Source: Macrostomum lignano
Lineage: Eukaryota
Assembly (NCBI GenBank): GCA_002269645.1
Contig: NIVC01001575.1
Location: forward strand, 246,232-310,231
Direction: 5' to 3'
Length of the DNA stretch: 64,000 nucleotides
The position numbers and the translations under genes are program-made. Each line of letters starts with the position of its first letter. The first letter of the stretch is position 1. Shown here one piece after another: positions 39,901-63,771 of this stretch. The notes beneath the pieces were generated by a model, which was not told the DNA's origin, ran no database searches, and worked only from the letters and a program-made list of their open reading frames with translations.

Positions 39901-42900
39901 CTCAGCTTGCAATGTTTGGAGCCATCACAGACTCAAGCGGACGAATTTGGCGCAGAAGAAGAGAAGACCTGTACTTGCTGGAACATTCGAGAAATTATCT
40001 ATTCAAAACAGAGTTCTTCGTACTTCGATACCTGCCGTCAATCACTTGTGTTTCGCCAAGCGACGCTTTGAGGCAGCTCGAAGCAGGTGAAATGGCATCA
40101 GACTGGCAACCGCTGATCAGCGATTCGCGTCTGCAAAGCGCCGTGTGCAAGCGACCTGCAGTGTACCTGGCATCGCTAGGCAATAGAAATGCTGCTCACT
40201 GTGACCTAGAAGCGCAAATTCCTTCAATTGAAATCGTGCGTCTGCTTTTAGAAAATTGCGGCATTGATAATCCATCGTGGCTTGAGCTGAACAACTTCGC
40301 CAGATTTTTCAACGGACAGCTTGTTGACTTTGAGCGATCACCTTTCTGTGGGCCACTAGCCGAGCAAGACCTACCTGGCTTCAGAAGATTTGTGCTTTCC
40401 TGTCTTTTGCTCATGTCCAAAGATTTTTCAAGTCGCTCATTGAACATCGCTGATGAGAGCGAAGCTGCACAGCCAAATGCAGAGAATGATCGTCCACTGA
40501 TTGAGAACTTTGAAGTCCGCCGTCGTTGGGAGCACACCTCTCACCCCTATCTGCTGTTCAATCAAGACGGCACGACCTTTACATTCGTTGGCTTCACAGT
40601 GAGTCAACAAGGTCATCTCTTGGACAGCGCGACCAACGCTGTTGTACAGGAAGGCATCATGAGTCCGCAGCTTTACCAGAGCCTCATCGCACAACGTGTT
40701 CGTCTTCAAGAGCGGTTCGAGGATCTGAGTCGGCAGAATAAAATTGAGAGAATGAGAATGGTGTTCGGTCACTCTGACACTAATTTCCCGGACCCCGATC
40801 CGTCCTATGAGCTGACTATGGACAACGTCAAGAAGATGCTGGCTATCTACATGCGGTTCAGGAGCGAGATTCCTGTCGTTCTGATGGGCGAAACGGGCTG
40901 TGGAAAGACTAAGCTTGTCGAGTTTCTGGCTCGAATCATGCTGCCAGCTCAATCCGACATTTGCAACATGCGAATTCTGAAGGTCCACGGTGCTGTAACA
41001 ACTGCCGATGTGGTGAAGGCAGTCCAGGACGCTGTTGAGTTGTCACGTCAGAACCACGCAGTGACTCCTTACACAATTCTATTCTTTGATGAAGTAAACA
41101 CGACCAGTGCTGTCGGTCTGATTAAGGAAATCATGATTGACGGCAGAATCAATGGTGAGAGGATAAGCTTTGCCTATGGACTGAGATGCATTGCCGCTTG
41201 CAATCCTTACCGCAAGCATCCCGAATCGACAATCAAGAGACTGGAGAACAGTGGACTTGGATACAGAGTGAGAAAAGAGGATACTCAGGATAAATTCGGA
41301 AATGTTCCGATGCGACATTTGGTTTATCGTGTAAAGCCGCTGCCTCTCTCCCTGATCAGCGTTTTGTGGGACTTTGGCAGTCTCTCTGATGACTCTGAAA
41401 GGAAGTACATTACCAGAATGGTTGAGTCCAGACTTCGGACCTCTCCAGCGCAGAAGGCACGCCTTGTAGAGCTGGTTGCAGCATCACAACACTTCATGCG
41501 CAATACGGATGATGAGACAAAGTATGTTTCACTGAGAGAAGTCGAGAAGGTCATAGTCGTGTTCCAGTGGCTTTCAAATGGATTGCTAGCACAGTTGGAC
41601 GCTCGAGATGACGGAGATTCTGATTGCAATGAGGAAACTCTAATCGAAATTATGGCTTTAGCTTCGTGCTATCTGAGTCGCCTGCCAAAAGAGAACAAAA
41701 ATGGCTATCTCGAATTGCTGTCTCAGGTTCTGAATGCAGGTCTGAGTCCTCATGACATTATGCAAATCATCACCCAGTGTCATCAAAGGCTTTTAAATGA
41801 CATTTCGGAGCATCTGCCAAAGTCAATTGCAAAGAACGAAGCTCTTAGAGAAAATGTCTTCATGATGGTGCTTTGCATCACACTTCGAATCCCATTGTTT
41901 GTTGTCGGAAAGCCTGGAAGTTCCAAGTCGCTCGGAAAGTCGATTGTGAAGAGCAACATGTTGGGAACAAACTCACAAGGCGAAATATTTCGCCAGCTTC
42001 CAAATACGCAGATGCTGTCGTTCCAGTGTTCCCCATGGTCAACTTCTGAGGGAATCATCAAGACGTTCGAACAGTGCTCTCAACTGCAGAAAGAAAAGGA
42101 CCTCGATAAGTTCGTCTCCGTGGTTATTCTTGACGAAGTCGGTTTGGCAGAAGACAGTCCCAAGATGCCTCTAAAGGCACTTCACCCGCTTCTTGAGGAA
42201 GGCTACTTTACTGACTCCTTGCAAACAGCTCAAAACAGAAAGCATAGCAAAGTTGGCTTCATCGGTATCTCGAACTGGGCTTTGGACCCGGCCAAAATGA
42301 ACCGCGGACTGTACTTGTTGCGAGACGTGCCCACGCACGAGGATCTACTGGATACGGCAAAGGGTATCTGCCAAAATCAGGTTCGAAAAGAGCGCGTTCG
42401 ATTACACCTGGAGCCCGTAACTAAGTTTTACGAGAAAATATACGACCACACGCAGAAGGAGAGAGAGTTTTTTGGCCTTCGTGACTACTTCAGTTTGGTA
42501 AAGCATTTGGCCTCAAAGTCTACCCTGAATCTTAGGACTGTGGCTCAGTGCATAAAGAGAAACTTCAGCGGATTCGGCGACTTGGATCCAGTGGACTTCT
42601 TTGCTAAAGAAATTGTTGGGAGAGAAATCGACTTGGGAAATTATTCAGCCATCAGAGATGCTCTGCGATCCACTGGTGAGGAGCAGCGATACCTGCTGCT
42701 TATCACGGAAAACTATTCAGGCTTTAAGATTTTGCCTCGACTGCTAGAGGACCAAGAGCATGATCAGCAAGTGAGCATCATCTTTGGCAGCAGCTTTCCA
42801 AAGGACCAGGACTACTCGAAAATCTGCCTGGACATCAATCGTATTAAGATCAGCATGGAGCGAGGCAGCACTGTTGTCCTGCTGAACATGGACGCTCTGT

Positions 42901-45900
42901 ATGAGAGTCTTTACGATGTTTTAAACCAGTACTATGAGCAGTGCGGTGACGATCGCTTTGTCGATCTTGGACTTGGCACCCACCGGCTCAAATGCAAGGT
43001 GAACCGGAACTTCCGCATGATTGTCGTTGCTGAGCAGACAACAGTGAGAGAGCGATTTCCAATTCCATTGATCAATCGGCTTGAGAAGCATAAGCTCACG
43101 ACATCTGCAGTTCTGGTAGCGGAGCAACAAGAGTTTGTTAGCAAGCTCAATAGTTGGGTGAAGTCTTTCTACCTTCAAGGACAACTGGCAAAGGGCGAAA
43201 ATCCCAGCAATGTGTTTGTCGGCTACCACGATGATGTGATTTCATCTCTTGCGCTAGAGTTCGGATCCGATGAAGAGGCTGTGAAGAGAAGTATTCTGCT
43301 TGTCGCTCCTCCAGACAGTCTCGTGAGACTGAATCAAACCCGACTGCGTGATCTGAAAAGTGACTATCTGAATGAACATTATGACAGGCACTGTCTGCAA
43401 AGCATAAAAGCTTTTTTGGCTAACTACAGCTTTTCAAAGCCATTTCTTCAGGTAACAACATTCGATCGTCTTCTGGCTACCAGGCAAGTTGACGAGCTTT
43501 CGAGACTAATTCCAGGAAGCGTAACTTCCGCAAATCTGAGCAAGTTCGAAAGTGAAACGCAATTTATGGAGTTCATTAGGCGCTTCCTTAGTACGGATGA
43601 TATGACGACACTCATTTTGCAGTTTGAAGGTCTCAGACTGAACTATCAAAACCTTCTCGCGTGTGCCAAGTATCTGATAGAAGAACAGTTTAAAGAGCTG
43701 GCTGAGAAGAGTCCAAATGTTTATCAGAATAAGCGAGTAATGCTGTTTATCAAGCTTGTCCGATCGCATGCCAATCCATTCACTGGATTTGACTCGGGGA
43801 CTTGGCAGTCTGTGCACATTGAGGAGTTGGTGCCGTCCGGCAGGGTGAACATTCGTCTGTTGGACACTATGCCAGTTTCCGCTGCTGTAAAACTTAGCTA
43901 TGAGGCCTTCCCTGCTGATGCCAACGAATTTGCTATGGAAATTGATCAGTCTCTCTTGCTCGACAGAGATCTGGGTATTCCTATCGACTTGCGTCTTCTA
44001 ATTGAGCAGTCTTTGCATCAGGCAATGAGCATGCTTAGAGATGGCGGCGATCGCGATTCCAACGAGACTGACAGCCGCCTGATGGAGAGACAAGAGATTC
44101 TGAGTGGCGCGTTGAGAGATGACCAGTCAGGGGGCCAAAAATTTTTCGAATGCATGTGCAAGTTCGTTGTTAATGTACTTACGTGGAAAGACGAGAGCTC
44201 ACTTGCTATGTACAGTCCTAACGAGTGGCTCAGTCGAGAAGCTGCTCGAGACTTGAATGTTCTAAACGCTGGTACCTTCATGTAAGTTAAGATAGAGTTA
44301 AGCAATTATTTTTTAAAGCATTATGCAATTACTTGTAGTTTCTTTTTTCCATGTAATCTATAGCGAGAGCACGTGGCGCGTCCTGAGACAGAAAGTGGCT
44401 CCTGCCATCGCCTGCTTCCTGGCATTATCCGACCGAGACCAGAACCTCAACTGCTACCGACGCGATGGCCTGCGAGGCCTGTGGCTGCGCATGGTGGAGC
44501 CGTCATCCGGTCTCGACCAGATCACGGAGAACCTGGTGAAGGGAACCACGGGCGACTTCCAGAGAATTGAGGTCGCTTCGTCCTCATGCGACGGTCGCCG
44601 GTTCGCGTGCCGATTCCCGTTCTCCTGGGCGGTGGTGGAGCGGCTGGAGCGAATCTGCAACAAAGAGCAGCAGAGAGAAGCAGAGCGCTTAATGGAGCTG
44701 TTCTTGAATAGCACCCCGATCGGCCAAGTTCTCCAAGATGAAGAGGCCATCCCGGATCTGGTTGGCGGCTTCTGTCATGACCTTGTGAGAATTCGCATCG
44801 CAGGAGTAACCGAGGAAATGCTGCAGGTGCTGGTTCCCGTGATGCTGCGAGGACTCAGCGGCAGAGCCGAAACTTGTCTGGGCGCCGCGGTGTTCGAGAG
44901 CTTCTGGCTGTTCAAAGAGTTCAGCCAGCAGATGACGCTGGTGACTAGGCTGATGAAGAAGGTTCCGGGCCTGGCGCTGCAAGTGGACAGGATTGACAGG
45001 CTCGAAGAACTACCCGAGGTAAGTTTGATCGCTTCCAACAGAACAGTTGCCACGTGTCTTCACATGAAATGAAGTGATACCAGCTCCTCGAATAGGTTCT
45101 TAACTTTTCAATATTTGAATGAAGTAATATTCAACTTGGGTACTTATATAAATGGCTAGCAACCTCGGTTTTTGGCTTTGGAATAGTACTCAATCAAGTT
45201 GGATGTTTATTTAAGATGGTTTATAGTTACATGTGCATGTAGTTTGCTGGAGCGCTTTAGGCACGGTCGCAAAATCAAGGTAGTCTTGATTCATTCTAAA
45301 TTTTCTGGGCAAATGGTATAATATCTTCAGTTCTTGAATGCTCGGGCAATGGGCCAATGAATTTTCCGATACTTAAAAGTCACGTTTAAAGTCATACTCC
45401 ATGTCGCCTGATGAGGCCACCAAAAACGTGTTGCATTTCAGGCCCTGTTTGACGCATTTTATGAGTACTTCGAGACGAACAAGCGTGACCTGAACGCGGC
45501 CGAGAAGCGAGCCGTCTGGCTGAACCGGGTGGAACGGGCCCAGTCGGTGATTGACAGCCTGTTGAGCAATTTCGGCAAGCCTGCCATGGACTCGCATTGG
45601 CAGCGCATTGTGTGCGTCTACCTGTTTCTGAAGAACGTCACCGCACCGTTCGATGCGAGTCAAGAGAATGGAGAGAGTTCTATTAAGCCTATTCAGCTAT
45701 GGACTGTAATTAAACTTTTTTGTACTTTTTTCATTAAAATACGAACTTTAAAATACTAAGTTTACTTTAATCTTTGGTGTTTCAGTCTCTGGGCAAAAAT
45801 CCGAGTGCCAACTTCAGCGACGTATCCGGACTTCGATTGGTTGAAGACTTCTTGAACAAAATGAAGGAGGACTTGACAGTCAAACTGCTCGGGTGAGTTG

Positions 45901-48900
45901 AGGATTTATATATTTGTTAAAATCATAACTCAACTAATAGAACGACATGTATGTTAATTTGATAAAATTGATTTTATTCCATACTTATTCCATTACTTCC
46001 TGTAGTATCTGGATCCCTTCTGTCCTCTAGGGGTACCCTAACGTCAATTTGGTAATTTGGTACTGTACTCCACATCGGTACTTATTCGGTACACAGCACT
46101 CCGCATCGGTACTTATTCGGTTCGGTTCGGTACTTATACTTAAAGTTCGATCTGACGTATGAAGCGATGGTCGCTTTCTCATCTTTGCTTGCTCAGGGGC
46201 TAATTGGTTGGATAAACCTTCAGAATAGGATGGAAAACTTTAGGGTGACAAATACATACTCGCTCTCTCATCATTTCCAGCGCGAACGCTTGTTCCACTT
46301 GCGAAATCGCTTCCGACCAGCTGCTGCGGCTGCCCTGCGGCCATCCGCTCTGCCGCAATTGTCACGCCAATTTGCAGAACGCAGCCGCTGCTGCAAACAC
46401 CTGCACGCACTGCCAGGCTCCGTTCGACCCGTCAGTGGTTGTCGTTAACCCCAGAGTTGCGGCGCTAGACCAGTTTAAGGCTCGGTGCAACGCATTCCTC
46501 ATGGAGCTGGTCACCAAGCTCTGCTTCCGCCGCGGTGGCCAGGGCGGCCAGCCTCCAACCAGCGACCTGTGCGACCGTCTGCTCGGTTACGTCACCCGGA
46601 GCGGCCGGCACGACGTGGCCGCTGTCGCCTGCTTTGACGTGGAAAGCAACAATGGCGACGATGGCGAAGAAGGCAGAAGTCCGGTGTTCCGTTCATTCAT
46701 ACTACAGCAGCTGCTGGCTTATAAAGAGGAGCAGGTTCTTGGTCAGCTAGATGAGCATCTGAGAGCGGCTAACCGTATTATCGACTCACCTGATCATCTG
46801 GCGCTTATTGTGGTGCACTGTCTGGAGGTGAGACGATGTTGACGATCAGTTCACGATGTTTAAAAGGTGGTTAAAAATATGCCCTCAACAATGTGCATTG
46901 GTGCCAGACAGAGGTAGAGAGGCAACAACCACCCCTAAAGCACGTAATAAGCTGTGTACATTGCAGCGAGCCACTGCAAACATTCAATCTAATTCAATGC
47001 ACTGAATCCAAAAAATTCCCTTCCCCATCCAGGACCTGTCGATTTCCAGACTTGCTGGACACCCCATCGAGCAGCGGCTGCTCCGAGCTGTCAGCCAGGT
47101 GGTCGGCACGGAACCTCCAAGCATCACACCTCACGATGCCAACCCGCTGGATCTGCGACGCCTCCGCCAGGTGGCCGACTGGCGAGTTGCCCTGTCGCTG
47201 CTGGCCTCCAGCATCGCCGCCCTGCCTGACGGAGCGCGAAGCGTCGACTTGCCGCCGCTGCAGGACGGTCGACGTCGAGAGCGACTGGCCCGCTCGCTGC
47301 TGCAGCACCAGTGGTCCCGGGTGTACTTCCTGCGCTGCCTCAGCCGCTTCGGCGGCACCTGCGCAGCGCTTGAGCGACTCCGAGCAGATGAATACTTGGC
47401 CAGGGTGTTCCGTGAGGAAATGCAGCTCATCGAGGGCCGGGTGGAATTGCCAGACATCCTTCTGTGTCATTCGGAGCTGTATAGAAATGTGCGCAGGTGT
47501 CTGTACCAGGCCTACCTCACTGCAGAGCTCAACCAGCAGGTATGATGATTAGCTGCCAGTGTTGGTTATGAAATGGATGTTAAGGTGGAGAAAGTGAGGA
47601 GCATCCACCCGCCGCACACAGTGTACAAAGGGCACTGAGTGAGGAGCAGCCACCCCACAGCACACAGTGTACAAAGGGGGAGATAGCGACGTTTGCCAGC
47701 CGACGTTTGCCAGCCGACATTTGCCAGCGGGACGTTTGCCAGCGAAATTTGTCTGCCGGACGTTTACCTGCGGGACGTTTGCCAGCCGACGTTTGCCAGC
47801 CGACATTTGCCAGCGGGACGTTTGCCAGCGAAATTTGTCTGCCGGACGTTTACCTGCGGGACGTTTGCCAGCCGACGTTTGCCAGCCGACGTTTGCCTGT
47901 CGGAAGTTTGCCAGCCAAAATTTGCTAGCCAATATAAAGCCAGTCAGTGAAAAATTTGATACTGAAATATTCGCAGTTTAGCGGTTTGACAAAAACCGTT
48001 TTTACCCCAACTTTTTGACGCTTATTCGCATGTACAAGTTCGAAAGCAAAATCATATAAATTATGCAATTTATTAGTCTAACATCTAATATCTAGTTTAA
48101 CAAAGATTTTGGCACAACATATCAAAAGAACATTTGGGTTTTCCTCTTATGAAAGCAATAACAAATGTTGTGCTGAAAAGAGGAAAATTTCCTATCTCCC
48201 TATGGCCTTAAAATATTTTTCATAGATTTCGAGTGCTGCGTCCTTCTACTTTAGAAGTCTTTGGTATCCTACTAGCTCGTAGTACTCGTTTTCTTCATAA
48301 CTTAAATCGCTGGAGATTCCCGTTTTAATCTGCGTGAAGATTTTGCACGTCAAAAATCAAACTTCTCAAACTGGGAAAAAAATATTTCACATTCAAATAA
48401 AATCGTTGTTAAACTGGATATTAGATGTTAGACTAATAAATTGCATAATTTATATAGATTTTGCTTTCGAACTTGTACATGCGAATAACCGTCAAAAAGT
48501 TGGGGTAAAAACGGTTTTTGTCAAACCGCTAAACTGCGAATATTTCAGAATCAAATTTTTCACTGACTGGCTTTATATTGGCTAGCAAATTTTAGCTGGC
48601 AAACTTCCGGCAGGCAAACGTCGGCTGGCAAACGTCTCGCAGGCAAACGTCCGGCAGGCAAACGTCCGGCAGGCAAATTTCGGCTGGCAAACGTCGGCTG
48701 GCAAACGTCTCACTGGTAAACGTCCGGCAGGCAACGTCGGCTGGCAAACGTCGGCTGGCAAACGTCGGCTGGCAAACGTCCCGCAGGCAAACGTCGTAGA
48801 CCCTACAAAGGGCACTGAGTGAGGAGCAGCCACCCCACAGCACACAGTGTACACAGGGCACTGAGTGAGAAGCAGCCACCCCACAGCACACAGTGTACAC

Positions 48901-51900
48901 AGGGCACTGAGTGAGAAGCAGCCAACCCACAGCACACAGTGTACACAGGGCACTGAGTGAGAAGCAGCCACCCCACAGCACACAGTGTACACAGGGCACT
49001 GAGTGAGGAGCAGCCACCCCACAGCACACAGTGTACACAGCATGCAATGTACACGCGACACTGAGTGAGGAGCAGCCACCCCACAGCACACAGTGTACAC
49101 AGGGCACTGAGTGAGAAGCAGCCACCCCACAGCACACAGTGTACACAGGGCACTGAGTGAGAAGCAGCCAACCCACAGCACACAGTGTACACAGGGCACT
49201 GAGTGAGAAGCAGCCACCCCACAGCACACAGTGTACACAGGGCACTGAGTGAGGAGCAGCCACCCCACAGCACACAGTGTACACAGCATGCAATGTACAC
49301 GCGACACTGAGTGAGGAGCAGCCACCCCACAGCACACAGTGCGCACAGGGCACTGAGTGAGAAGCAGCCAACCCACAGCACACAGTGTACACAGGGCACT
49401 GAGTGAGAAGCAGCCACCCCACAGCACACAGTGTACACAGGGCACTGAGTGAGAAGCAGCCACCCCACAGCACACAGTACATGTATACACCGGACACTGA
49501 AGATCAGCCACCCCACAGCACACAGTGTACAGCATAAGACTTTCCTGTTTCAGAGACCGGATTTCCCACCAGCCGAGAGTCCTGTGGTGGCTCTGGTTGC
49601 CCTCGTCGCTGCCTATCGCCTTCGCCACATGCAAGGCAGGTGCGATGAGCAGCAGCTGACCGCCTGCATCAACTTGATGCTCAGCTGGATGACGCCCGCA
49701 GCCCAAGAGCTGTACAGGCGACTGGAGCCTCTGGCTGGGGCCACGGATGGCAACCATCAGCTTTGTCTGCTGCAGATTCACCTGGCCTTCGTGTTGGCAA
49801 CCTGCCAATCTGACATTGTCAACTTTCTCACTCAACTGCCGAACAACTTCAACAACTGGCTGCTGCCTGGCATGCGGCATGACGAGCTGTTCGAAGCTTT
49901 CACGGCTCAGGGAATCGGGGGCACCCGCGCCTATGGTGAGCTCGCTTGGGACTCTTCAATTAGTCTGCAAGACTATGGATTTGAACTGTTTCACTGGCTG
50001 TTGACTCATTTCAGCTTGCCCCAACGGCCATCCGTACTACATTGCCAATGTAAGTCTTTTGTATGTTGTTGGCAGATGAGTGGGGGTGGAATCGCAAAGT
50101 GGGGATCGGAGAGATAAGGAAGGTGGGGTGCAAAGCGGGGGCTGACGAGAAAGGGAGCGGTGGAGGCGCAAAGTGGGGCTGGGGAGGGGGCCCATCACAA
50201 GCTCGAAAAATCACATCGTCGAAAAGCATCCACCATCACAAGCTCGAAATGTCATAAGCTCGAAAAATTACATCGTCGAAAACTGATTTAGAAACCACCA
50301 TCATAAGCTCGAAAAGTCACATCGTCCAAAACTGATTTAGAAACCACCATCATAAGCTCGAAAAGTCACATCGTCGAAAAGGTTAGCAACCACCATCACA
50401 AGCTCGAATAGGGTTAGGGCTAGTGCTTGTGCCTTAGAGTAGGGTTTAGGGTTATGTTAGGGTTGGGGTTAGAACTTGTGCCTTTAGAGTTAGAGTTTAG
50501 GGTTAGGTTAGGGTACTGGTGCCTTAGGGTTAGGGTTAGTGCCTTGGGGTTGGGGTTAGAGCTTGTGCCTTTTCAACCTTGTGATGGTGGTTGCTTTTTG
50601 ACGATGTGATTTTTTGAGCTTATGATGGCGACCCCCTTCTGGAGAGAAAGGTGGAGGCGCAAAGTGAGGGTCGGAGAGACAAGGAGGAGCAGAGGCGGGT
50701 GGGGTCAGAGAGATATGAAGAGGAGGGAAGAGAAATAGAGCAACTACTAGCTAGATAGAAATAACCCAACAGTGGCAGTTGATAGCCAAGCCTGAGAGAA
50801 CTGCAACCGCAGTCACAAAGAAAAAGCGATAAAATGATATTCGATAGGGCTGGTCACAAAATTCGTGGACAAATGACAAACCCTTTCTTTCTACGAGTAC
50901 TTTGCCTGCAAACTTTCTCTAGCTATCTATCAGTATCCGGAGCCCTCTCATCCAACTCTCCGACTCTCCTATCCTCCCAGTGTGGCCAGGCGATGCAGCT
51001 CTCCCGCTGCCCGGACTGCGGCAGCGCCATCGGCGGCCAGAACCACCAGCTGGTGGCGGGCAACGCGGGCTACCAAGCCGCGGACCGAACCCAGCGCGGG
51101 TTCGTGCCGGTCGCCGACCACAACCGGCCAGAACCGGTCCGTCAGCTGTCTGCCGGTGCAGCGGCGCTCCTGCGGTCACTGCAGGCGCTGGCGCTGCTGC
51201 TGGGCGGCGCCGCTGGAGGCGACAGGCGCCGATTCGCTGAGGAGTTCCACACCGGCCTGGCGTTGTTCAGCCGCGCCACGGGTCGCAGTCAGGAGGACGC
51301 AGCACAGGCGCTCCACCTGCTGCTGCTGCGCGGCCTGTCAGCACCCGCGCCCGCCACCGCCTTCAACCTGCTCAACAACGATGGACGTCGCGAGTTCGAG
51401 ACCCGCTTGGAGACGCGCCTGCTCCGGCCGCTGCTGGACAACCTGAGCGACTGGCTGCAGGAGTCCAACCGAATCGTCGGGCAGGACGACCTCGGCAGGA
51501 CATCGGAGATCGTCCGCCTGGTGCAGGAGACCTCGGAGCTCGACAGGCGACAGGCGCACGAGGGCCAGCTGTGGCGCTACAGGCAGGTCATCTCCGTGGA
51601 GCACGCGGTGCAGACCTTCCGGGAGCTGGGCGTCGAGGAACAGAGGCGGCACGCCCTCATCGAGGCCGTCACTCGCTGGGAGTTCGCGCTGAGGCACCTG
51701 CGGTCTCTGCCGGCTCTGCTGCAGCTGGTGAAGGACCTGGTGGCCGCTTGGAAGCTGAATTTGAGCATGGATAAAGCTAAGCAGCAATTCCTGCGTGTGG
51801 TTGGCAGGAATGAGAGGTAGGCATTGTCTGCTGTTGCGACTTTCTTAGTCATGGACTCATGTCTTAGTTCATCTGGGGCCTGTGCTATAGTAAATTTATA

Positions 51901-54900
51901 TTAAACTCCTAAATAAGAGTAATTCTAGTCGTAATTCAAAAACAACAAGTTTTATTACCCTGTGAAAAGCGGCTGGCGTGAGATACGAGCGCGTAAAGCA
52001 ATAAAACCATTTTAGGCTACAAGCCTACGAATTTAATTAAGTTGATAGACAAGTCAATAGAAAATGGTTTAACTGCTATCGTAGTTAATTGCTCCCATTT
52101 GATATAAACAACTAACACTCGTATAAGAAATATCGTGTAGGAAGGGTGCTGCGTTGATTCTCATTGATCCGAAATTGTGATAGTACGAAATTCTTCGAAA
52201 AAGCTTGTCCTTTGCTTAAATTGCCTGTATATCTTTAGGACACGCACTCCTAAAATTCACTCGTAAACGGCAACTCTTAGCTTCTAGCTCCTACTCCCCG
52301 CTTCTTATTCTATAGCACGCGACAAACCTTAATGAGGTCTCCTAAATTCACCAAGGAGTCCTCCTACGTGCTTAAAAGGAGCCTCCTAGCTCTTAAAATT
52401 TACTCTTGATTCTATAGCACAGAAAAGCCATCTAGGAGGCAGGAGCTAGGACTTAGGACACTCTTAAGGATAGACGAGTATTCTATAGTACGGGCACTAC
52501 TAAGGGATTCCGTAAGTGTTGATTTTGGAGGTGAGGTGGGTGTCAACCCTCCTCGCCTCTCATTGGCTGGCGCCCCGATCACTAGGTGATCGATACCCGT
52601 ATCGATATCGGCGCTCGGCGCGCGCGCGCGCGCCGCAGGCGCCAAGCGCCGCAGGCGACCCTCCCCAGCCGCAGGCGCACCTACCGATATTAGATCCCAA
52701 TAAATCAATCAGATCCCAAATCAATCAGATCCCAAATCAATCAGATCCCAAGCGCACCCACCCGAGCCGCAGGCGCCCATGCAGCAGGCGCCCCTCCCCG
52801 CCGCACGCGCCCTCCCCCGACATGTATGCCGCAGGCGCCCTCCCCGTCTCAGGCGCCCCTCCCGATATGTATGCGCACTCTCCCTATATGTACACCGATA
52901 TGTATGCAGCAGGCGCCCCGAGTGTACACTCCCCCGATATGTGTGTACACCGATATGTAGTCATCGATACGGGCCTCTTTCCCTCTCTCACCTACATCTC
53001 AACTAGCGAAATCGAACCCAGGTCGCGCCCATACTAGGACACTACACGGTTGTGGGGTATAGGGAGCGAGAAGTTTCAACCCTAACGCTGACGCAGCCCT
53101 GTACAGTGAGAGTGTACGGGCAGAGAGGGGTGGCGCGGACAGAGAACCAGCCACTAGGTTGTTATACTGTTGAAGCATAGGGAGCGAGAAGTTTTAACCC
53201 CGATGCTGACGCAGCCCTGTACACTGAGCGTGTACGGGCAGAGGGTGGGTGGAAAGAGATGTGAATAACACAGCCTGCTGCAGGAGCCGGATAGAGAGGC
53301 GCATGCTAGGACAGAGAGGTAGTGTGAGTCACACACACACCCCACAGAGAAAGCCATACAGAGGATAGAGAGCTCCCTCCCCAGTTGCAGGGGACAGAGA
53401 GGCAGGCTGGGTATGCAGGGGCATGCGAACCGTCAAGGGGCCACGCGAGGATAGAGTGGAGGAGCAGAGATGTGTTTGGACAGAGAGCCAGCCACGTGTG
53501 CGTAGTGTGAGGGAACAGAAACATATGGAGCAGGAGGGAGATAGGAAGCAAACGCGCAGGGTAAGGGAGCCACACAGGGCGGTACAGTGAGACACGGGCA
53601 GGGGTGGAGCCGTGCGTGGACAGAGCTGAACGGCACGGTCAGCTGCAGGAATAGGATGATAGAGAGGCGCGGAGGGGGACAGAGAGCAGTGTGCAGGGGT
53701 AGGCAGCCACGCAGGCTGGGGAACAGAGAGGCGCGTGTCAGCCAGTTGCAGCCCGGGACAGAGAAGTATGAAGGGGGGCCTGGGACAGAGTTCCGAGCAA
53801 GGCACAGAGGTAGGGTCCTGTAGCTATGTATAGGCAGGGAGCCACGCGAGGGCAGGACAGGGGAGCAGACATGCAAGTTGCATGCAAGGCCAGAGAGGTG
53901 TGCGCGGAGGGAGACAGAGAGCAGTGTGTAGGGGTAGGTAACAGCAAACTTTAGTAGCGGCGCGTGCGGGGACGGAGAAACCAGTCAGAGCATACAGAGA
54001 CGTTACAGAGAGGTACACAAGCAGAGACCAAAGCGAGCAGAGCACATGTGTAGGGACAGAGACGTGAGGGAGAATCGACCAAAACACGCTATGTATTTTC
54101 AAAAGTTGGTTTTAGTGCAACATGTTTAATAGTGGGTAGTATAATAGTATGTACATAGTAGGTATAATAGTAGTAATAATAGTAAGCATATTAGCCCAAA
54201 AGGTAGACTAAAACAGGCTAAACTGTGTGTACGCATCCTCATCACCCCACAAGCCCCCTCTCCCGCCAGACTCACTCTACCAAACCCTCCTGTATTGCTG
54301 CATGAAGGAAAATATAGTGTAAAAATACAGATCTTAACCGTCAGACCGCTGAAATCAGGGCACACTAGAGGGGTTTCGGGGTCTGCATGCTCTATGTAAG
54401 CTGCTTGAGGAGGTTCCAAGGGCGTTGTGAGGGTTTCCATTATGTTTTGAAAAAAAACTAGAGGCTTAAATACAACGTTTTATTCAAAAGTAGGTTATTT
54501 TAATGAAATAGCTGACACAATCATTGTCGAGAGTAGAAATTTTTATAAGAAACCAGGCATTTTAGCAAAAATAAACCTTCAAACCACATAAAATTGAATA
54601 AAAAGCAGACATTTTCAATTATAAACCGCAAGTATTTTAATAGAAAAGTAAGCAAACAAGGCACAAAACCAGCAAATTTTACCTTTTTATTTTAATGTTA
54701 CTGATAAGGTAGAGAGTAGAAACTTGTGAGCTGTACGGAGTTAGAAAGTATTAACCATTATGTATCGTATGAATTATTAGTTCAGTACCAGCCATTGGTC
54801 AAGCGAGCATTTATGAAGTTATTACGAGTGATGAAGGGATAGAGAGCTATATACAGGAAGACAGTATCCTTCTAAACCACCACGAACAGATTGCTAATAG

Positions 54901-57900
54901 AGATAAGCTTTGTCTGTGTGCAGTATGAGTAAGCGAAGGCGGGGCAAATACTTTTCCACATGCCGGACAGAACAGTATTGTGCTAGGATTTCTCTCGAAA
55001 TCGCGGTACGTTACTAGTTTTTATCACACCATCCAGATGCGTCAACTAGTCAGCAGTAGTCATTTATATGTTATTAGAACTTACAAACCCAGGTCAAGTA
55101 AATATTACAAAGAGTATATTACGTACACACGCCAACTCCGAATACCAAGCCATACTAGTCTACTTGCAGTGCTCCTGGAGGGAAGGGACGGCGGGGTGTA
55201 CATCCGGCAGGGTGGGCGTCCAGCGAGTGTACATCTGACAGGATGGGTGTTCAGCAAGTGTACATCTGACAGGGTGGGCGTTCAGCAAGTGTACCTTCAG
55301 CGTCGAGTAGGTGTACACCCGTCAGTGGGAACTCAGCCCCTCCCACCAATGTCGTGTGCATGCGGTTAGTCAGTATAGTGGTGGGGTAGACGGTGCAGGA
55401 AGGAAACCCAGATGCTGACGCTGCCCTGTACAGCGAGCAACCAGCCCTCCTGTAGCAGGAGGGGACATAGAGTGCGTGGAGGCAGTAGGAGATAGAGGAC
55501 GCTACCCGGCATGTCGCAGCACGCGGCGCGGGACAGAGAGGCAGTGTGTAAGTCACCCCCGCGGAGGGACAGAGAGCTACCCTGGCAGGAGGCGCGGGAC
55601 AGAGAGGCGGTGAATCACACCCCACGGAGAGAGCCGTACAACGAGCTTCCCCACCCGAGTCCGGTAAATATTACAGAGTATTACGTGCACACGCCAGCCC
55701 TGAATACCAAGCCATACTAGTCTACCTGCAGTGCTCCCAGAGGGAAGGGATGGTCAGGAGTTACACACCAAGAATGCATTCATACAAAGAGTACACAACT
55801 CGAGCCAGACACCAAGTCACAGTCTACTTACAGTAGAGATGGTAGATTAATAGCAAGATTATATTACAATTAGACCTCCCTAGCACATGAGGAGTGAAAT
55901 TCAATAATAATTGAATTCAATAATAATACAACATTTAGACGTAGTAATTTAATTACAAAATACCACTAACACTGAGCCAACGAATTGTAGGTTACAAAGG
56001 AGTTGTCACTCATATGGAAAGTCAGTATAATGCAGGTGTATATTATTAAAACATAGACAAAAACGATGCAGACGTATATACACACTATTGATTTTGTACA
56101 TGTACATTTCGGCATATTACCACACATCGCAGGCACATATTATATATCGGGGATAGGTTAAAATACACACATCGTAGATGTAGAAGCAGACACAATGCAG
56201 GAAAATTATGATACGAGTGTACATATTAGTGCGTAAAAGTATCATATTATGACACCCTGTAGCACATATTGACATAATGCAGGGGAAAATATTGACAGAA
56301 ATAGTACACAATTGTAGAGGTAACAACCCGCCAACTAGTAAGGACATCCAGCACTTGTTCAGGTTTTTATTATTTCGAGACGAGTGTCATGCCCCCGCAA
56401 GAGATCTTATCAGAAATTTGTTGAACTCCACTGCAACTCTCCCCAGAGCCTCCAAATGTGAGTTTTTAACCCAGGGTCGAGTACAAAGGACCCGCCCACT
56501 CTTAACCCCAAGGGGTGATCGTAGCGGAGACCAAGTACAGTGCGGACGGAGAGGGGTAACAGAAAGCGCTGCATCAGACCGCAGGGCTGCATTCCTCCCC
56601 GAGGTAGGCGCGTCAGCTCCCACTCCTCATTTAACCATCAAGTAAACTAAAGAAGTCAAGCAGAAAGCCTTACAATCACCCGCAACCAGCACAAGTAAGA
56701 GTACTTTCCACTAGAGAGCCATAGTGCAAGATTCGCGAGCCAAGTTGAAGAAGCACACCAAATTACACTAAAGACATATGTATTAAAAAGCATACCGGCA
56801 CCTCTACAAAAACACAGTATGTACCGATTAAAGTTGCTTTTGGTGCAGTGTATTTAATAAAAAGCAGGTACCTAACACAAAAGTAGGCATCAATGCAGTG
56901 CACGGGCTAAACTGTATTTACAAACGCAGGGCAACGAACTACACACAATGTAGCGCATAGACATAATTGTACGCATAAATGTACGCAATTTCCGGTATAT
57001 AGGACCAAATGTACACAATGTACACAAACACACACACACACACACACTCAGGCGCATCCTGCAGCGCATCCTGCAGCACCGATCGCCGCAGGCGATGGCG
57101 CCATCGCAGGAAGCTCTTGCTGTGAATACGCCTGAGTGTGTGTGTGTGTGTTTGTGTACATTGTGTACATTTGGTCCTATATACCGGAAATTGCGTACAT
57201 TTATGCGTACAATTATGTCTATGCGCTACATTGTGTGTAGTTCGTTGCCCTGCGTTTGTAAATACAGTTTAGCCCGTGCACTGCATTGATGCCTACTTTT
57301 GTGTTAGGTACCTGCTTTTTATTAAATACACTGCACCAAAAGCAACTTTAATCGGTACATACTGTGTTTTTGTAGAGGTGCCGGTATGCTTTTTAATACA
57401 TATGTCTTTAGTGTAATTTGGTGTGCTTCTTCAACTTGGCTCGCGAATCTTGCACTATGGCTCTCTAGTGGAAAGTACTCTTACTTGTGCTGGTTGCGGG
57501 TGATTGTAAGGCTTTCTGCTTGACTTCTTTAGTTTACTTGATGGTTAAATGAGGAGTGGGAGCTGACGCGCCTACCTCGGGGAGGAATGCAGCCCTGCGG
57601 TCTGATGCAGCGCTTTCTGTTACCCCTCTCCGTCCGCACTGTACTTGGTCTCCGCTACGATCACCCCTTGGGGTTAAGAGTGGGCGGGTCCTTTGTACTC
57701 GACCCTGGGTTAAAAACTCACATTTGGAGGCTCTGGGAGAGTTGCAGTGGAGTTCAACAAATTTCTGATAAGATCTCTTGCGGGGGCATGACACTCGTCT
57801 CGAAATAATAAAAACCTGAACAAGTGCTGGATGTCCTTACTAGTTGGCGGGTTGTTACCTCTACAATTGTGTACTATTTCTGTCAATATTTTCCCCTGCA

Positions 57901-60900
57901 TTATGTCAATATGTGCTACAGGGTGTCATAATATGATACTTTTACGCACTAATATGTACACTCGTATCATAATTTTCCTGCATTGTGTCTGCTTCTACAT
58001 CTACGATGTGTGTATTTTAACCTATCCCCGATATATAATATGTGCCTGCGATGTGTGGTAATATGCCGAAATGTACATGTACAAAATCAATAGTGTGTAT
58101 ATACGTCTGCATCGTTTTTGTCTATGTTTTAATAATATACACCTGCATTATACTGGCTTTCCATATGAGTGGCAACTCCTTTGTAACCTACAATTCGTTG
58201 GCTCAGTGTTAGTGGTATTTTGTAATTAAATTACTACGTCTAAATGTTGTATTATTATTGAATTCAATTATTATTGAATTTCACTCCTCATGTGCTAGGG
58301 AGGTCTAATTGTAATATAATCTTGCTATTAATCTACCATCTCTACTGTAAGTAGACTGTGACTTGGTGTCTGGCTCGAGTTGTGTACTCTTTGTATGAAT
58401 GCATTCTTGGTGTGTAACTCCTGACCATCCCTTCCCTCTGGGAGCACTGCAGGTAGACTAGTATGGCTTGGTATTCAGGGCTGGCGTGTGCACGTAATAC
58501 TCTGTAATATTTACCGGACTCGGGTGGGGAAGCTCGTTGTACGGCTCTCTCCGTGGGGTGTGATTCACCGCCTCTCTGTCCCGCGCCTCCTGCCAGGGTA
58601 GCTCTCTGTCCCTGGGGGTGACTTACACACTGCCTCTCTGTCCCGCGCCGCGTGCTGCGACATGCCGGGTAGCGTCCTCTATCTCCTACTGCCTCCACGC
58701 ACTCTCTGTCCCCCTCCTGCTACAGGAGGGCTGGTTGCTCGCTGTACAGGGCAGCGTCAGCATCTGGGTTTCCTTCCTGCACCGTCTACCCCACCACTAT
58801 ACTGACTAACCGCATGCACACGACATTGGTGGGAGGGGCTGAGTTCCCACTGACGGGTGTACACCTACTCGACGCTGAAGGTACACTTGCTGAACGCCCA
58901 CCCTGTCAGATGTACACTTGCTGAACACCCATCCTGTCAGATGTACACTCGCTGGACGCCCACCCTGCCGGATGTACACCCCGCCGTCCCTTCCCTCCAG
59001 GAGCACTGCAAGTAGACTAGTATGGCTTGGTATTCGGAGTTGGCGTGTGTACGTAATATACTCTTTGTAATATTTACTTGACCTGGGTTTGTAAGTTCTA
59101 ATAACATATAAATGACTACTGCTGACTAGTTGACGCATCTGGATGGTGTGATAAAAACTAGTAACGTACCGCGATTTCGAGAGAAATCCTAGCACAATAC
59201 TGTTCTGTCCGGCATGTGGAAAAGTATTTGCCCCGCCTTCGCTTACTCATACTGCACACAGACAAAGCTTATCTCTATTAGCAATCTGTTCGTGGTGGTT
59301 TAGAAGGATACTGTCTTCCTGTATATAGCTCTCTATCCCTTCATCACTCGTAATAACTTCATAAATGCTCGCTTGACCAATGGCTGGTACTGAACTAATA
59401 ATTCATACGATACATAATGGTTAATACTTTCTAACTCCGTACAGCTCACAAGTTTCTACTCTCTACCTTATCAGTAACATTAAAATAAAAAGGTAAAATT
59501 TGCTGGTTTTGTGCCTTGTTTGCTTACTTTTCTATTAAAATACTTGCGGTTTATAATTGAAAATGTCTGCTTTTTATTCAATTTTATGTGGTTTGAAGGT
59601 TTATTTTTGCTAAAATGCCTGGTTTCTTATAAAAATTTCTACTCTCGACAATGATTGTGTCAGCTATTTCATTAAAATAACCTACTTTTGAATAAAACGT
59701 TGTATTTAAGCCTCTAGTTTTTTTCAAAACATAATGGAAACCCTCACAACGCCCTTGGAACCTCCTCAAGCAGCTTACATAGAGCATGCAGACCCCGAAA
59801 CCCCTCTAGTGTGCCCTGATTTCAGCGGTCTGACGGTTAAGATCTGTATTTTTACACTATATTTTCCTTCATGCAGCAATACAGGAGGGTTTGGTAGAGT
59901 GAGTCTGGCGGGAGAGGGGCTTGTGGGGTGATGAGGATGCGTACACACAGTTTAGCCTGTTTTAGTCTACCTTTTGGGCTAATATGCTTACTATTATTAC
60001 TACTATTATACCTACTATGTACATACTATTATACTACCCACTATTAAACATGTTGCACTAAAACCAACTTTTGAAAATACATAGCGTGTTTTGGTCGATT
60101 CTCCCTCACGTCTCTGTCCCTACACATGTGCTCTGCTCGCTTTGGTCTCTGCTTGTGTACCTCTCTGTAACGTCTCTGTATGCTCTGACTGGTTTCTCCG
60201 TCCCCGCACGCGCCGCTACTAAAGTTTGCTGTTACCTACCCCTACACACTGCTCTCTGTCTCCCTCCGCGCACACCTCTCTGGCCTTGCATGCAACTTGC
60301 ATGTCTGCTCCCTGTCCTGCCCTCGCGTGGCTCCCTGCCTATACATAGCTACAGGACCCTACCTCTGTGCCTTGCTCGGAACTCTGTCCCAGGCCCCCCT
60401 TCATACTTCTCTGTCCCGGGCTGCAACTGGCTGACACGCGCCTCTCTGTTCCCCAGCCTGCGTGGCTGCCTACCCTGCACACTGCTCTCTGTCCCCTCCG
60501 CGCCTCTCTATCATCCTATTCCTGCAGCTGACCGTGCCGTTCAGCTCTGTCCACGCACGGCTCCACCCCTGCCCGTGTCTCACTGTACCGCCCTGTGTGG
60601 CTCCCTTACCCTGCGCGTTTGCTTCCTATCTCCCTCCTGCTCCATATGTTTCTGTTCCCTCACACTACGCACACGTGGCTGGCTCTCTGTCCAAACACAT
60701 CTCTGCTCCTCCACTCTATCCTCGCGTGGCCCCTTGACGGTTCGCATGCCCCTGCATACCCTGCCTGCCTCTCTGTCCCCTGCAACTGGGGAGGGAGCTC
60801 TCTATCCTCTGTATGGCTTTCTCTGTGGGGTGTGTGTGACTCACACTACCTCTCTGTCCTAGCATGCGCCTCTCTATCCGGCTCCTGCAGCAGGCTGTGT

Positions 60901-63744
60901 TATTCACATCTCTTTCCACCCACCCTCTGCCCGTACACGCTCAGTGTACAGGGCTGCGTCAGCATCGGGGTTAAAACTTCTCGCTCCCTATGCTTCAACA
61001 GTATAACAACCTAGTGGCTGGTTCTCTGTCCGCGCCACCCCTCTCTGCCCGTACACTCTCACTGTACAGGGCTGCGTCAGCGTTAGGGTTGAAACTTCTC
61101 GCTCCCTATACCCCACAACCGTGTAGTGTCCTAGTATGGGCGCGACCTGGGTTCGATTTCGCTAGTTGAGATGTAGGTGAGAGAGGGGAAGAGGCCCGTA
61201 TCGATGACTACATATCGGTGTACACACATATCGGGGGAGTGTACACTCGGGGCGCCTGCTGCATACATATCGGTGTACATATAGGGAGAGTGCGCATACA
61301 TATCGGGAGGGGCGCCTGAGACGGGAGGGCGCCTGCGGCATACATGTCGGGGAGGGCGCGTGCGGCGGGGAGGGGCGCCTGCTGCATGGGCGCCTGCGGC
61401 TCGGGGGTGCGCTTGGGATCTGATTGATTTGGGATCTGATTGATTTGGGATCTGATTGATTTATTGGGATCTAATATCGGTAGGTGCGCCTGCGGCTGGG
61501 AGGGTCGCCTGCGGCGCTTGGCGCCTGCGGCGCGCGCGCGCGCGAGCGCCGATATCGATACGGGTATCGATCACCTAGTGATCGGGGCGCCAGCCAATGA
61601 GAGGCGAGGAGGGTTGACACCCACCTCACCTCCAAAATCAACACTTACGGAATCCCTTAGTAGTACGGGCCCCTGCACCAGTGGCGTAGCCAGGGCCCCC
61701 CCCCCCAATCGCCTGGGGGTGGGGTTGGGCGCGCGGGTACCAAAAACCATGAGGCAATTGAGTGCCTGCGGCGCCAAAATGAGTGCCTGCGGCGCCAAAA
61801 TGAGTGCCTGCGGCGCCAAAATGAGTGCCTGCGGCGCCAAAATGAGTGCCTACGGCCGCCAAAGTGAATGCCTGCGGCGCAAAACGAGTGCCTGCGGCGC
61901 CAAAATGAGTGCCTGCGTGCCAAATGAGTGCCTGCGGCGCCAAAACGAGTGCCTGCGGCGCCAAAATGAGTGCCTGCGGTGCCAAAATGAGTGCCTGCGG
62001 CGCCCAAATGAGTGCCTGCGGTGCCAAAATGAGTGCCTGCGGCGCCAAAATGAGTGCCAATGGCAATGGTGGCAATGGCGTAAGGCATGGCCAGCCAGGC
62101 CAACCCGCCCCCCCCAATTGATATTCCTGGCTACGCCACTGCCCTGGGGCCCGTGCTATAGAATACTCTTAACTCCTAAATCCTTAGAGTGTCCTAACTC
62201 CTTGCTCCTAGCTGGCTTTTCTGTGCTATAGAATCAAGAGTAAATTTTAAGAGCTAGGAGGCTCCTTAAGGACGTTAGGAGACTCCTGGTGAATTTAGGA
62301 GAACTCATTAAGGTCCGTGCATGCTATAGAATTAGGAGAGGAAGTCTAGGAGCTAGGAGCTAGGAGCTGGCTTTTAGGAGTCATTCTAGGAGGTGTGTCC
62401 TATAGAATGAGAAAATTTCGCTCCTAACTCTTGACTCCTAAGCAAGAGTTCAAGGGCAATTTTCACTCTTAGACAAGCTAGGATTATAATGTTTTCGGAC
62501 AGCGAATCGGATTCTGATGAGGAAGGAGTCAATGATAGACGCCGTCGACAATTTAAGGCAAGAATTAATATTTTTGAAGAAGATCCAGCCGAGAGTGCTA
62601 TGCGTTTTAGACTTAACGATATCCAGCTTTCAAGCCTAACAGATAGAATTCGACACAGAATCGAACATCCAACATCAGTGTGTCCTAACAAATTCCAACA
62701 TTCCAATATCACGTCTTGCCACATAGCAATCTTCGCATTCTTAGTTATGGTTGTACTAAACGCACCAAAGAGAACCTCTTTGCGTGCAGCGACGGCTCTC
62801 ACAAATGATTTTTTTTGAGCAATTTGCATTTTCACTCCTGAGATTCAATCCTTAAGGACCGTAAATTTAGGATTGTGATATAGCACACAATTCTCTATCA
62901 TCCTTAAACAAATTGCGCAACACTCCTTGAACACCACCCCCACTCCTAGGCTGCACTCCTTGCAAGAACTCCTAGCTCCTAACTCTTAACTCCTGAAATC
63001 TATAGCACACAAAATTCAATCACTCCTTGTCAAGAGTACTCTTGTGTCCTAGCTCCTAACTCCTGATTCTATAGCACGGGCCCCTGCACTTGTCTCTGTT
63101 TTCTCTCCTCTGTCTAGCCCAGTCTTGCTATTTTATCTCCTCTCCCTCGCTGCCTTCTGATTGGCTCTTCTCTCTCGCCTCTTTCCTTCGTCGCGCACTC
63201 CGCCCTTCATTGTCTTATCTACACCCACCCCCCACTAATTATATGCCTTAAATATACTCCCTTGGGCCCGGCACCCCCACTGGGAGACACGCACTCGTGC
63301 ACACGCTCACACAGGCTGTACAGCAGCTTTTTGACTTTTTAATCGTCAGGCAGTGTACACTCTCTGTGCCTTGGGGTTGGCACTCATTAATTTGAATGGG
63401 ACAACAAGCCCCAAATGAAGTGGCTGCATACGGAATCGAACCCACAGTCACAGCCAGGTATCATTTCCATTCAATCACCAGGTGGGAGGCCGGCATTCGC
63501 GAGTTTGTCGAGACCTGGCGTGCCCTCAGCGGCTACCTGGCCACCAGGGGTGCCAGGTTCCCCGACGCAATTTTCCCCATCACGCTGCACGCCCACCCGG
63601 CCGATGAGATGCGGCTGGCCGCGCTGCTACCTCACAACGGAGTCTGGGGCCGCTGCATCGGGCCTGGTGCAGCTGCTCATGGAGGCTCAGAACGCCGTGC
63701 TGGACGCTAGCGGGGTTCACTGCGACGAGATTGACATCTGCCAG
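31516..63744 (+). CDS. RNF213: RNF213/mysterin-like giant AAA+ ATPase / E3 ubiquitin ligase gene (multi-exon, continues beyond window)
   Basis: Domain order: KFCSECG zinc ribbons, CBM20-like domain, stalk, AAA+ modules, C3HC4 RING, RZ finger, C-terminal domain. Most exon junctions from 36950 onward are phase-compatible GT/AG. 'RNF213' denotes the family; orthology is untested. Confidence 0.88.
34308..36950 (+). CDS. RNF213: RNF213-like stalk region: cluster of small exons (individual boundaries only approximate)
   Basis: Coding-like segments such as LPELLYLAPAYHL, WLEEFLTRYGEFDPLL and FLRQLSAVEFV, separated by short AT-rich introns. The last donor CTGG/GTAAG after 36950 joins the giant exon in phase. 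Confidence 0.55.
37030..44281 (+). CDS. RNF213: RNF213-like giant exon containing the AAA+ core
   Basis: Walker A GETGCGKT and GKPGSSKS; Walker B ILFFDEVN and VILDEVGLAE; ISNWALDPAKMNR; SIIFGSSFPKD; LYDVLNQYY; FPIPLINRLEKH. Confidence 0.92.
44364..45892 (+). CDS. RNF213: RNF213-like E3-module exons (44364-45018, 45442-~45658, ~45787-45892)
   Basis: ESTWRVLRQKV...FACRFPFSW is an RNF213-like segment; phase-compatible splice sites. Confidence 0.75.
46281..46827 (+). CDS. RNF213: RNF213-like RING-finger exon
   Basis: Reads CSTC-x11-CGH-x2-CRNC-...-CTHC (C3HC4), followed by FLMELVTKLCF and FRSFILQQLL. Confidence 0.85.
47033..47539 (+). CDS. RNF213: RNF213-like exon
   Basis: CCATCCAG/ acceptor; open frame DLSISRLAG...AELNQQ; donor CAG/GTATG. 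Confidence 0.75.
47679..48803. mobile_element. Mutator-like foldback MITE with ~400-bp TIRs
   Basis: 9-bp direct repeat TACAAAGGG at 47670-47678 and 48804-48812. TIRs consist of GACGTTTGCCAGCC repeats plus a ~190-bp unique inverted segment. Inserted into the 46-bp minisatellite. Confidence 0.75.
48804..49530. repeat. 46-bp minisatellite (CAGCCACCCCACAGCACACAGTGTACACAGGGCACTGAGTGAGAAG); first units at ~47590-47678
   Basis: Tandem units visible, split by the MITE. Confidence 0.92.
49554..51816 (+). CDS. RNF213: RNF213-like RZ-finger exons: 49554-49935, micro-exon 50015-50049, 50981-51816
   Basis: The spliced frame reads TRAY-A-CPNGHPYYIAN-CGQAMQLSRCPDCGSAIGGQNH, the RZ-finger consensus. Confidence 0.88.
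50187..50636. mobile_element. MITE-like element with CATCACAAGCTCGAAAA subterminal repeats and internal TTAGGG-rich tract
   Basis: The two ends are inverted (CCATCACAAGCTCGAAAAATCACATCGTC / GACGATGTGATTTTTTGAGCTTATGATGG); no TSD identified. Confidence 0.55.
51886..52495. mobile_element. PIF/Harbinger-type MITE (copy A); its last 2 nt lie at 61671-61672, beyond the palindrome
   Basis: Left TIR GGGCCTGTGCTATAG preceded by CTG. The right TIR CTATAGTACGGGC|CC is interrupted and followed by CTG at 61673-61675. The right part resembles the reverse complement of 62147-62330. Confidence 0.75.
52496..61664. mobile_element. 9.17-kb fully palindromic insertion (arms 52496-57054 and 57129-61664, 74-bp spacer), unclassified
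   Basis: The arms are near-identical reverse complements wherever compared. Termini ACTACTAAGGGATTCCGTAAG / CTTACGGAATCCCTTAGTAGT; direct repeat ACGGGC at 52490-52495 and 61665-61670. Confidence 0.92.
61679..62141. mobile_element. hAT-type MITE with internal 21-bp repeats (AAAATGAGTGCCTGCGGCGCC)
   Basis: TIRs CAGTGGCGTAGCCAGG / CCTGGCTACGCCACTG. 8-bp TSD CCCTGCAC; the right copy is split by Harbinger copy B. Confidence 0.85.
62147..63083 (+). mobile_element. Internally deleted PIF/Harbinger transposon (copy B)
   Basis: TIR GGGCCCGTGCTATAGAAT at both ends; CTG TSD (62144-62146 and 63084-63086). Transposase N-terminus on plus (RRRRQFKARINIFE...MRFRL...IEHPT) and Myb/SANT-like N-terminus on minus (KEVLFGAFSTTITKNAKIAMWQDV). 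Confidence 0.85.
63482..63744 (+). CDS. RNF213: RNF213-like C-terminal-domain exon with apparent frameshift
   Basis: The acceptor TCACCAG/G completes the Arg codon split at 51816. It reads WEAGIREFVETW...LAALLPHNGVWGRC, then continues in another frame as ASGLVQLLMEAQNAVL. The 3' donor is approximate. Confidence 0.7.
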
Positions 63745-63771
63745 GTGGTGCCAGCTCGAAAGGACAGGCAT

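Follow-up and report, generated by a model that had tools for sequence, protein, structure and literature searches.

A 9.2-kb gene-less inverted repeat with a 6-bp target-site duplication in an intron of an RNF213-like gene of Macrostomum lignano

What kind of mobile element can consist of almost nothing but its own inverted repeats? The question is raised by a 64,000-nt stretch of Macrostomum lignano DNA (GenBank assembly GCA_002269645.1, contig NIVC01001575.1, positions 246,232 to 310,231 of the forward strand), referred to below as the window and numbered from its first letter. Positions 52496-61664 are a real insertion in an intron of an immune-type RNF213-like gene of this flatworm. The insertion is precise, with a 6-bp target-site duplication (TSD), symmetric ACTACT ends, no coding capacity and near-identical arms. 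Its fold-back structure is exceptionally long and the insertion is recent and gene-less; the centre is known from the assembly alone. The element is best filed among the non-autonomous foldback DNA elements, as a new variant whose integration signature resembles that of Polintons; it is known from one assembled copy.

Self-comparison of the window by BLAST gives a single long minus-strand match spanning 52496-61664, at 99.0% identity. The left arm (52496-57054, plus strand) is 4559 nt long, non-coding and starts with ACTACT. The right arm (57129-61664, minus strand; 4536 nt) is its reverse complement, ends in AGTAGT and has 24 nt fewer by way of 14 small deletions, and a central loop of 74 nt (57055-57128) lies between the two. 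In a global alignment the arms differ by five substitutions (0.11%) and 15 small indels, which makes them 99.3% identical. The initial annotation had described a perfect foldback with arms of about 4.56 and 4.54 kb around a 74-bp loop: the self-BLAST and the arm alignment reproduce this layout and the near-identity of the arms, not their perfection. In 14 of the 15 indels it is the right arm that lacks the bases (two-sided p = 0.001); ten of the 15 are single bases in homopolymers and two more are (CA)n units. A bias this one-sided suggests a technical cause, in which case the arms may in truth be even more alike. All five substitutions (52980, 53408, 55468, 56006 and 56022) have T on the left arm, and at 55468 it is the right arm that keeps the consensus of an internal repeat.

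The boundaries were examined over nine symmetric shifts (-4 to +4), along with every staggered parse close to the ends. Only one symmetric parse, 52496/61664, joins mismatch-free ends (ACTACT...AGTAGT) to a long duplication, the 6-bp ACGGGC present on the plus strand at 52490-52495 and 61665-61670. Identity of the left copy runs 4 nt further (TAGT), into the right end of the element. Duplications of 7-10 bp, up to TAGTACGGGC, are exact only if the right end is trimmed by 1-4 nt relative to the left; the reason is that the TAGT preceding the target recurs as the last four bases of the element. By simple arithmetic this coincidence has a probability of about 1 in 256, whether the 6-bp parse or a staggered one is adopted. 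Symmetric 8-bp and 10-bp parses were rejected, as each requires a mismatch. Two earlier proposals, that 6 bp gives symmetric ends and that the flanking repeat could be read as up to 10 bp, are both borne out, the second with staggered ends.

The flanks establish what was interrupted. Excision of the element together with one duplicate restores CTATAGTACGGGCCC followed by CTG. The restored right terminal inverted repeat (TIR) matches the left TIR at 51876, which has CTG before it, as well as those of a sister Harbinger element (62147-63083). The repair of a Harbinger TIR noticed initially extends to a complete Harbinger-type miniature inverted-repeat transposable element (MITE), the insertion target, with 15-bp TIRs and its own CTG duplication on both sides (51876-52495 plus 61665-61672). 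The element occupies 9.17 of the 11.67 kb of one intron (51817-63481, plus strand), and the correct exons flank it: in two annotated, near-identical M. lignano proteins the exon that ends at 51816 is spliced to the one that starts at 63482, so that GRNER is followed directly by WEAGIREF. Continuity of the flanks at the base level (the restored MITE) and at the exon level shows that the insertion is real. The M. lignano assembly is redundant, the species being a hidden allotetraploid (PMC12801592), and empty-site copies should therefore exist.

Could the element encode its own mobility? None of the 92 frames of at least 35 aa in the left arm and centre reached the Pfam cut-off (best E 0.022), nor did any of the 12 frames in the right arm and centre, and PHROGs gave no match at E<=0.01 for the same 92 left-arm and centre frames. 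The longest open frame, of 183 aa, is what shuffling produces (mean 190; reached in 145 of 300 shuffles). These results uphold the initial view of a gene-less element with no transposase, integrase or polymerase motif. Other searches were equally negative: a word search that used the 173-aa frame from the terminus (no match among 266 candidates, with lengths of 95-303 only), the ESM Atlas with the 130-aa and 266-aa frames (no usable match; best 0.80) and an exact look-up of ATG-started frames in a protein collection (0 of 10). A 146-aa frame gave three weak HMMER matches among 1.84 billion representatives (E about 2e-4, four to six stretches each; Actinospica, damselfly), which were judged to be chance. 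A host-trained codon score reached 0.2 in one of 29 arm windows, with exons scoring 0.20-0.51 and intron and intergenic controls -0.52 to -0.02; this test is weak because the GC-rich arm windows fall between the control ranges. Rfam yielded no RNA family at gathering score, only sub-threshold matches of miRNA precursors to the central hairpin. No similar DNA was present among plasmids or phages, and searches of the element against PHROGs, phage DNA and proteins revealed no sequence link to any virus.

The arms nevertheless have a distinct internal organisation. The outer ~550 nt are GC-rich and not depleted in CpG (terminal domain, 52496-53050, plus strand; 60% GC, CpG observed/expected 1.12), and carry five copies of CGCAGGCG, eight of CAGGCG and a 16-nt triple repeat. 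These motif clusters are limited to the outer 420 nt of the arm. The window contains 12 copies of CGCAGGCG, against an expectation of 0.92: five lie in each terminal domain, with a single copy in the loop and another elsewhere; CAGGCG is absent over the 4.1 kb that separate the terminal domain from the centre. The motifs are candidate binding sites for the mobilising protein. Beyond the terminal domain the arm is a mosaic of internal duplications and degenerate, purine-rich repeats, and tandem arrays take up only short stretches of the arm; repeats with GGACAGAGAG-type units (53050-54080, plus strand; 67% purine) are partly duplicated again at 55380-55750. The loop contains a 12-nt tandem duplication, a 16-nt palindrome (57092-57107) and a mini-hairpin, ATCGCC-GCA-GGCGAT (57082-57096, plus strand), with a 6-bp stem and a GCA triloop. 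This hairpin, a candidate turn-around (self-priming) point, bears the terminal-domain motif and lies 2-3 nt from the symmetry axis.

How such a structure arose is less certain. The reading we prefer, although we hold it with rather less than even confidence, is that of a real, young, all-TIR non-autonomous DNA element, most likely derived from a Polinton/Maverick and moved in trans by the proteins of that element. It would work like a non-autonomous Polinton-type element, a statement about mode of action that does not assert actual membership. Intact vertebrate Mavericks have 6-bp TSDs and the end motifs (AGT)2, (AG)3 or (AC)3A, of which 5'-(AGT)2//(ACT)2-3' is the common arrangement, and such 6-nt tandem ends were tied by the authors to jumping-back protein priming (PMC8097293). 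Six base pairs is the Polinton TSD length in PMC10045372; PMC10748475 gives 5-8 bp, with TIRs of 100-1500 bp. The element shares with these a 6-bp TSD (ACGGGC; one copy, 7-10 bp being possible with staggered ends), TIRs and an A-starting 6-nt tandem end, (ACT)2, which would be suited to jumping-back priming. Short tandem hexamers, ACTACT among them, make up 76 of the 4096 hexamers (1.9%). Because of the 6-bp TSD and the A-starting tandem end, Polinton/Maverick fits best among the families checked.

In the scheme that we propose, copying from one end of a linear parent would have run for about 4.6 kb; the new strand would then have folded back at the GCA mini-hairpin and been copied back to the same end, generating two identical ends. 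The (ACT)2 tandem may serve protein-primed jumping-back initiation, as proposed for the Maverick end motifs, and the resulting double-stranded palindrome would have been integrated, at a 6-bp stagger, by a helper integrase of retroviral type. Each hairpin round would recopy one arm from the other, so that the arms would stay nearly identical. Three points of this scheme are inferred: the turn-back, the part that (ACT)2 plays in priming, and the helper's identity.

Several observations weigh against a Polinton/Maverick origin. The ends, 5'-(ACT)2//(AGT)2-3', are none of the motifs (AGT)2, (AG)3 or (AC)3A, and have the reverse polarity of the common vertebrate arrangement. The match is one by analogy to the rarer AC-starting type, exemplified by Monopterus albus Mavericks with an ACACAC 5' motif and 6-bp TSDs (11 rows; PMC8097293): (ACT)2 would relate to (AGT)2 as (AC)3 relates to (AG)3. 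This comparison covers vertebrate types only, and the 712 ACTACT rows of the vertebrate table in part; the nematode Polinton supplement gives no end motifs. Intact vertebrate Mavericks have TIRs of 46-1447 bp and a length of 12.7-24.6 kb (PMC8097293), unlike the present element with its 4.5-kb arms and 9.2-kb total. Its arms of 4559 and 4536 nt are three times as long as the longest of those TIRs, and in place of a coding interior bounded by TIRs of ~50-1500 bp they enclose 74 nt, essentially no unique interior. Genes for pPolB, integrase, ATPase, protease and capsid are absent; Pfam and PHROGs frame scans found neither pPolB nor an rve integrase, which is expected for a non-autonomous derivative. 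Within the 64-kb window there is no parent and no second copy, not even of the terminus. The loop folds no better than chance (matched by 255 of 1000 shuffles), a 12-mer in common with the arm turns up in 149 of 5000 shuffled loops, and a motif related to that of the terminal domain fills the neighbouring MITE; for these reasons the motif at the apex is only modest evidence. The Polinton reading also leaves the 4-nt TAGT identity between the element end and the pre-target bases to chance, and the proposed biology does not explain the deletion bias of the right arm. No Polintons have been reported in Macrostomum, nor has this element, in the literature and supplements searched, which did not include most subscription papers or Repbase, so that novelty is unproven; within the same limits no all-TIR Polinton derivative has been described. 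Repbase assigns a non-autonomous element to a superfamily when it shares TSD length and the first 11 bases with a member (PMC4455052), and an element named 'Polinton-N1A_NV' carries a capsid gene (PMC11296320). General background without further bearing is found in PMC2836005, PMC6431247, PMC11131425, bioRxiv 10.1101/2022.07.12.499685 and PMC8502044. The Polinton link and the snap-back origin put forward in the initial annotation are conjectural; the TSD and the A-starting tandem end favour the link, and polarity, TIR length and the lack of genes weaken it. That account had overlooked the reversed end polarity, a Penelope-type origin and the one-sided indels.

The element could instead be a Foldback-type cut-and-paste transposon, MULE/Phantom-like or of an unclassified DDE type, whose TIRs grew until they met and whose transposase acts in trans; we regard this as possible, if unlikely. 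Its true TSD would then measure 9-10 bp, the ends being staggered by 3-4 nt, unless the family is an undescribed one with a 6-bp TSD. Foldback-like long composite TIRs with subterminal repeats arose independently in the Mutator, P and Tc1/mariner lineages, and in the nematode Tm1 family TSDs measure 8-10 bp and the outermost bases are asymmetric (PMC3169594). Exact 8-, 9- and 10-bp duplications can be read here only with ends staggered by 2-4 nt, the clustered motifs of the terminal domain are typical of transposase binding arrays, and DNA transposons with repeat-rich TIRs are common in the window. Like Tm1, Drosophila FB, Galileo and FARE (PMC3169594), the element is non-autonomous, has long inverted arms capable of forming hairpins and bears clustered subterminal motifs. 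However, such a reading needs staggered ends although the arms are copied to within 0.11% substitutions, and the overhang would have to complement the start of the duplication by chance. The TIRs of the known Foldback/MULE elements consist largely of tandem units, and Tm1 is ~0.4-2.6 kb long with 8-10-bp TSDs (PMC3169594), whereas here the best TSD is 6 bp and the arms are mostly non-repetitive and much longer. Pfam frame scans of the element found no transposase remnant, of Mutator type or any other. Two further assignments were rejected on their termini. EnSpm/CACTA/Chapaev elements have CAC(TA) at both ends and TSDs of 2-4 bp; with a start at 52495 or 52494 the left end reads CACTA from 52495 and the right TACTA, so that a terminal mismatch is needed. 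IS3EU/GingerRoot elements also have 6-bp TSDs, with termini TA..TA, sometimes TG..CA (PMC10045372), as against AC..GT here, and the TA..TA parse (52498/61662) has no exact duplication.

A somewhat smaller probability attaches to an assembly artefact, in which an element with these ends and this 6-bp duplication is real and its unique interior has been displaced by a chimeric (fold-back) read or a wrongly resolved repeat. The 14 of 15 indels that shorten the right arm, mostly in homopolymers, look as if one arm rested on poor single-molecule data, and nanopore reads miss bases in the second half of inverted duplicates; yet genuine inverted duplicates yield the same signature (PMC7229812). The window also contains a 915-N gap (19729-20643), and the next exon, compared with an annotated copy that stays in frame, is missing bases near 63660. 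This last shift is also present in the annotated protein PAA66251.1 and may be an allele; being absent from A0A1I8IBB0 and present in PAA66251.1, it does not decide sequence quality, and it was dropped as proof of poor sequence because of that ambiguity. A fold-back read would return to the left flank, whereas the right end here enters the correct unique right flank, with the restored MITE and the next exon. The loop bears the element's own motif, and its 28-nt core has no match among 185,579 prokaryotic genomes, where a common adapter would be expected. An origin by retro-insertion, Penelope-like or otherwise target-primed, seems improbable. A 4.6-kb non-coding RNA would have been reverse-transcribed twice, to nearly equal lengths, and the two products joined head to head, 3' ends outward, with a 10-bp duplication and with priming through 4-nt homology between RNA end and target. 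It is the only model that explains the TAGT overlap. Insertions of Penelope carry TSDs of 8-10 bp and include inverted copies, with palindromes where the inverted units join that were attributed to self-priming, and Penelope can also mobilise unrelated DNA in trans (PMC3846280). Among Penelope-like elements (PLEs) the Naiads lack hammerheads and are 3.4-4.4 kb long, with non-autonomous PLEs also known (PMC8557442). PLEs with inverted pseudo-LTRs (PMC3846280, PMC8557442) resemble the element in their outward-facing like ends and palindromic inverted junction, and a 10-bp duplication is compatible. They differ in having a reverse transcriptase (RT), an endonuclease, a hammerhead core, a direct pseudo-LTR and a tail, and the arms here are of about equal length. 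Pfam frame scans of this very young element found no RT or GIY-YIG remnant; neither arm strand has a canonical hammerhead core and Rfam gave no ribozyme, an absence that is not decisive because Naiads, like Chlamys elements, lack hammerheads. There is no direct pseudo-LTR or other direct terminal repeat and no 30-40-nt tail, both outer ends are base-exact, and the inverted copies described are 5'-truncated (~200 bp in rotifer examples; PMC3846280) rather than of whole-unit length.

Snap-back or copy-back defective genomes of linear DNA viruses such as AAV offer a parallel. In these, one end is copied back through a hairpin, and the resulting palindrome is poor in genes and depends on a helper. 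Such viral genomes are extrachromosomal, whereas the flatworm element is integrated in the germline with a clean duplication. In a variant of the Polinton/Maverick-derived reading, the insertion might be a hairpin-capped 'half replicon' integrated in double-stranded form: a 4.6-kb gene-less unit with a protein-primed (ACT)2 end and a self-priming hairpin end, belonging to a family that parasitises a flatworm Polinton-like virus of a novel end-motif type by using its polymerase and integrase. We consider this about as doubtful as retro-insertion, or very slightly less so.

The replication and excision of Polintons are known almost wholly by inference from sequence. If the Polinton/Maverick-derived reading is true, finding that all-TIR hairpin derivatives form a family with 6-bp duplications would reveal the cis sequences sufficient for copying and integration, and a new end-motif type and an active helper would be indicated in a tractable laboratory animal. 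As a half replicon, the element would represent a heritable, germline-integrated copy-back defective genome or satellite of a Polinton, and a fossil of a proposed single-strand hairpin replication intermediate. Whatever its origin, a near-perfect 4.5-kb inverted repeat in the transcribed intron of an RNF213-like gene should yield very long double-stranded RNA and an unstable DNA palindrome. If its centre were an artefact, the locus would be a warning on how long TIR elements are represented in the M. lignano genome assembly.

The target region has been invaded repeatedly. Nested insertions lie beside the 9.17-kb element, and four elements are stacked inside ~20 bp of original sequence. A hAT-type MITE (61679-62141) has 16-bp perfect TIRs, an 8-bp duplication, CCCTGCAC, and an internal 21-bp satellite, and its right duplicate is split by the second Harbinger-type element (62147-63083). 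The latter is flanked by CTG and retains a weak Myb/SANT remnant (E = 0.007), a domain that Harbinger elements carry. The host gene is a giant RNF213-like AAA+/E3 gene (31459-63747) with a 7.3-kb exon; its 2449-aa frame (36936-44282) is 99-100% identical to four M. lignano proteins. RNF213-like paralogues are many in this species and some are apparently mosaic, P0003, P0004 and P0127 alternating between ~45% and 99% identity along the gene. In exon 63482-63747 the frame shift near 63660 differs from A0A1I8IBB0 and the paralogues and agrees with PAA66251.1; it is either a consensus error or an inactivating allele, which may accompany the insertion.

Other repeats are found elsewhere in the window. 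The element at 12959-14002 has 221-bp TIRs of 95% identity beginning TACGAGGGGTGTCCC, and we take it to be probably a Tc1/mariner-type MITE with TA ends. A Foldback-like element (47687-48796) with ~425-bp TIRs made of 14-bp subunits is inserted into a 46-bp intronic minisatellite, and part of it is mis-annotated as coding in A0A1I8IBB0. A small TIR element (50192-50628) includes degenerate TTAGGG-like repeats at 50409-50560. Also present are a C2-domain membrane protein (37-1218, minus strand), an alanyl-tRNA synthetase exon (18263-19042, plus strand) and a weak sulfotransferase match (26176-26775, plus strand).

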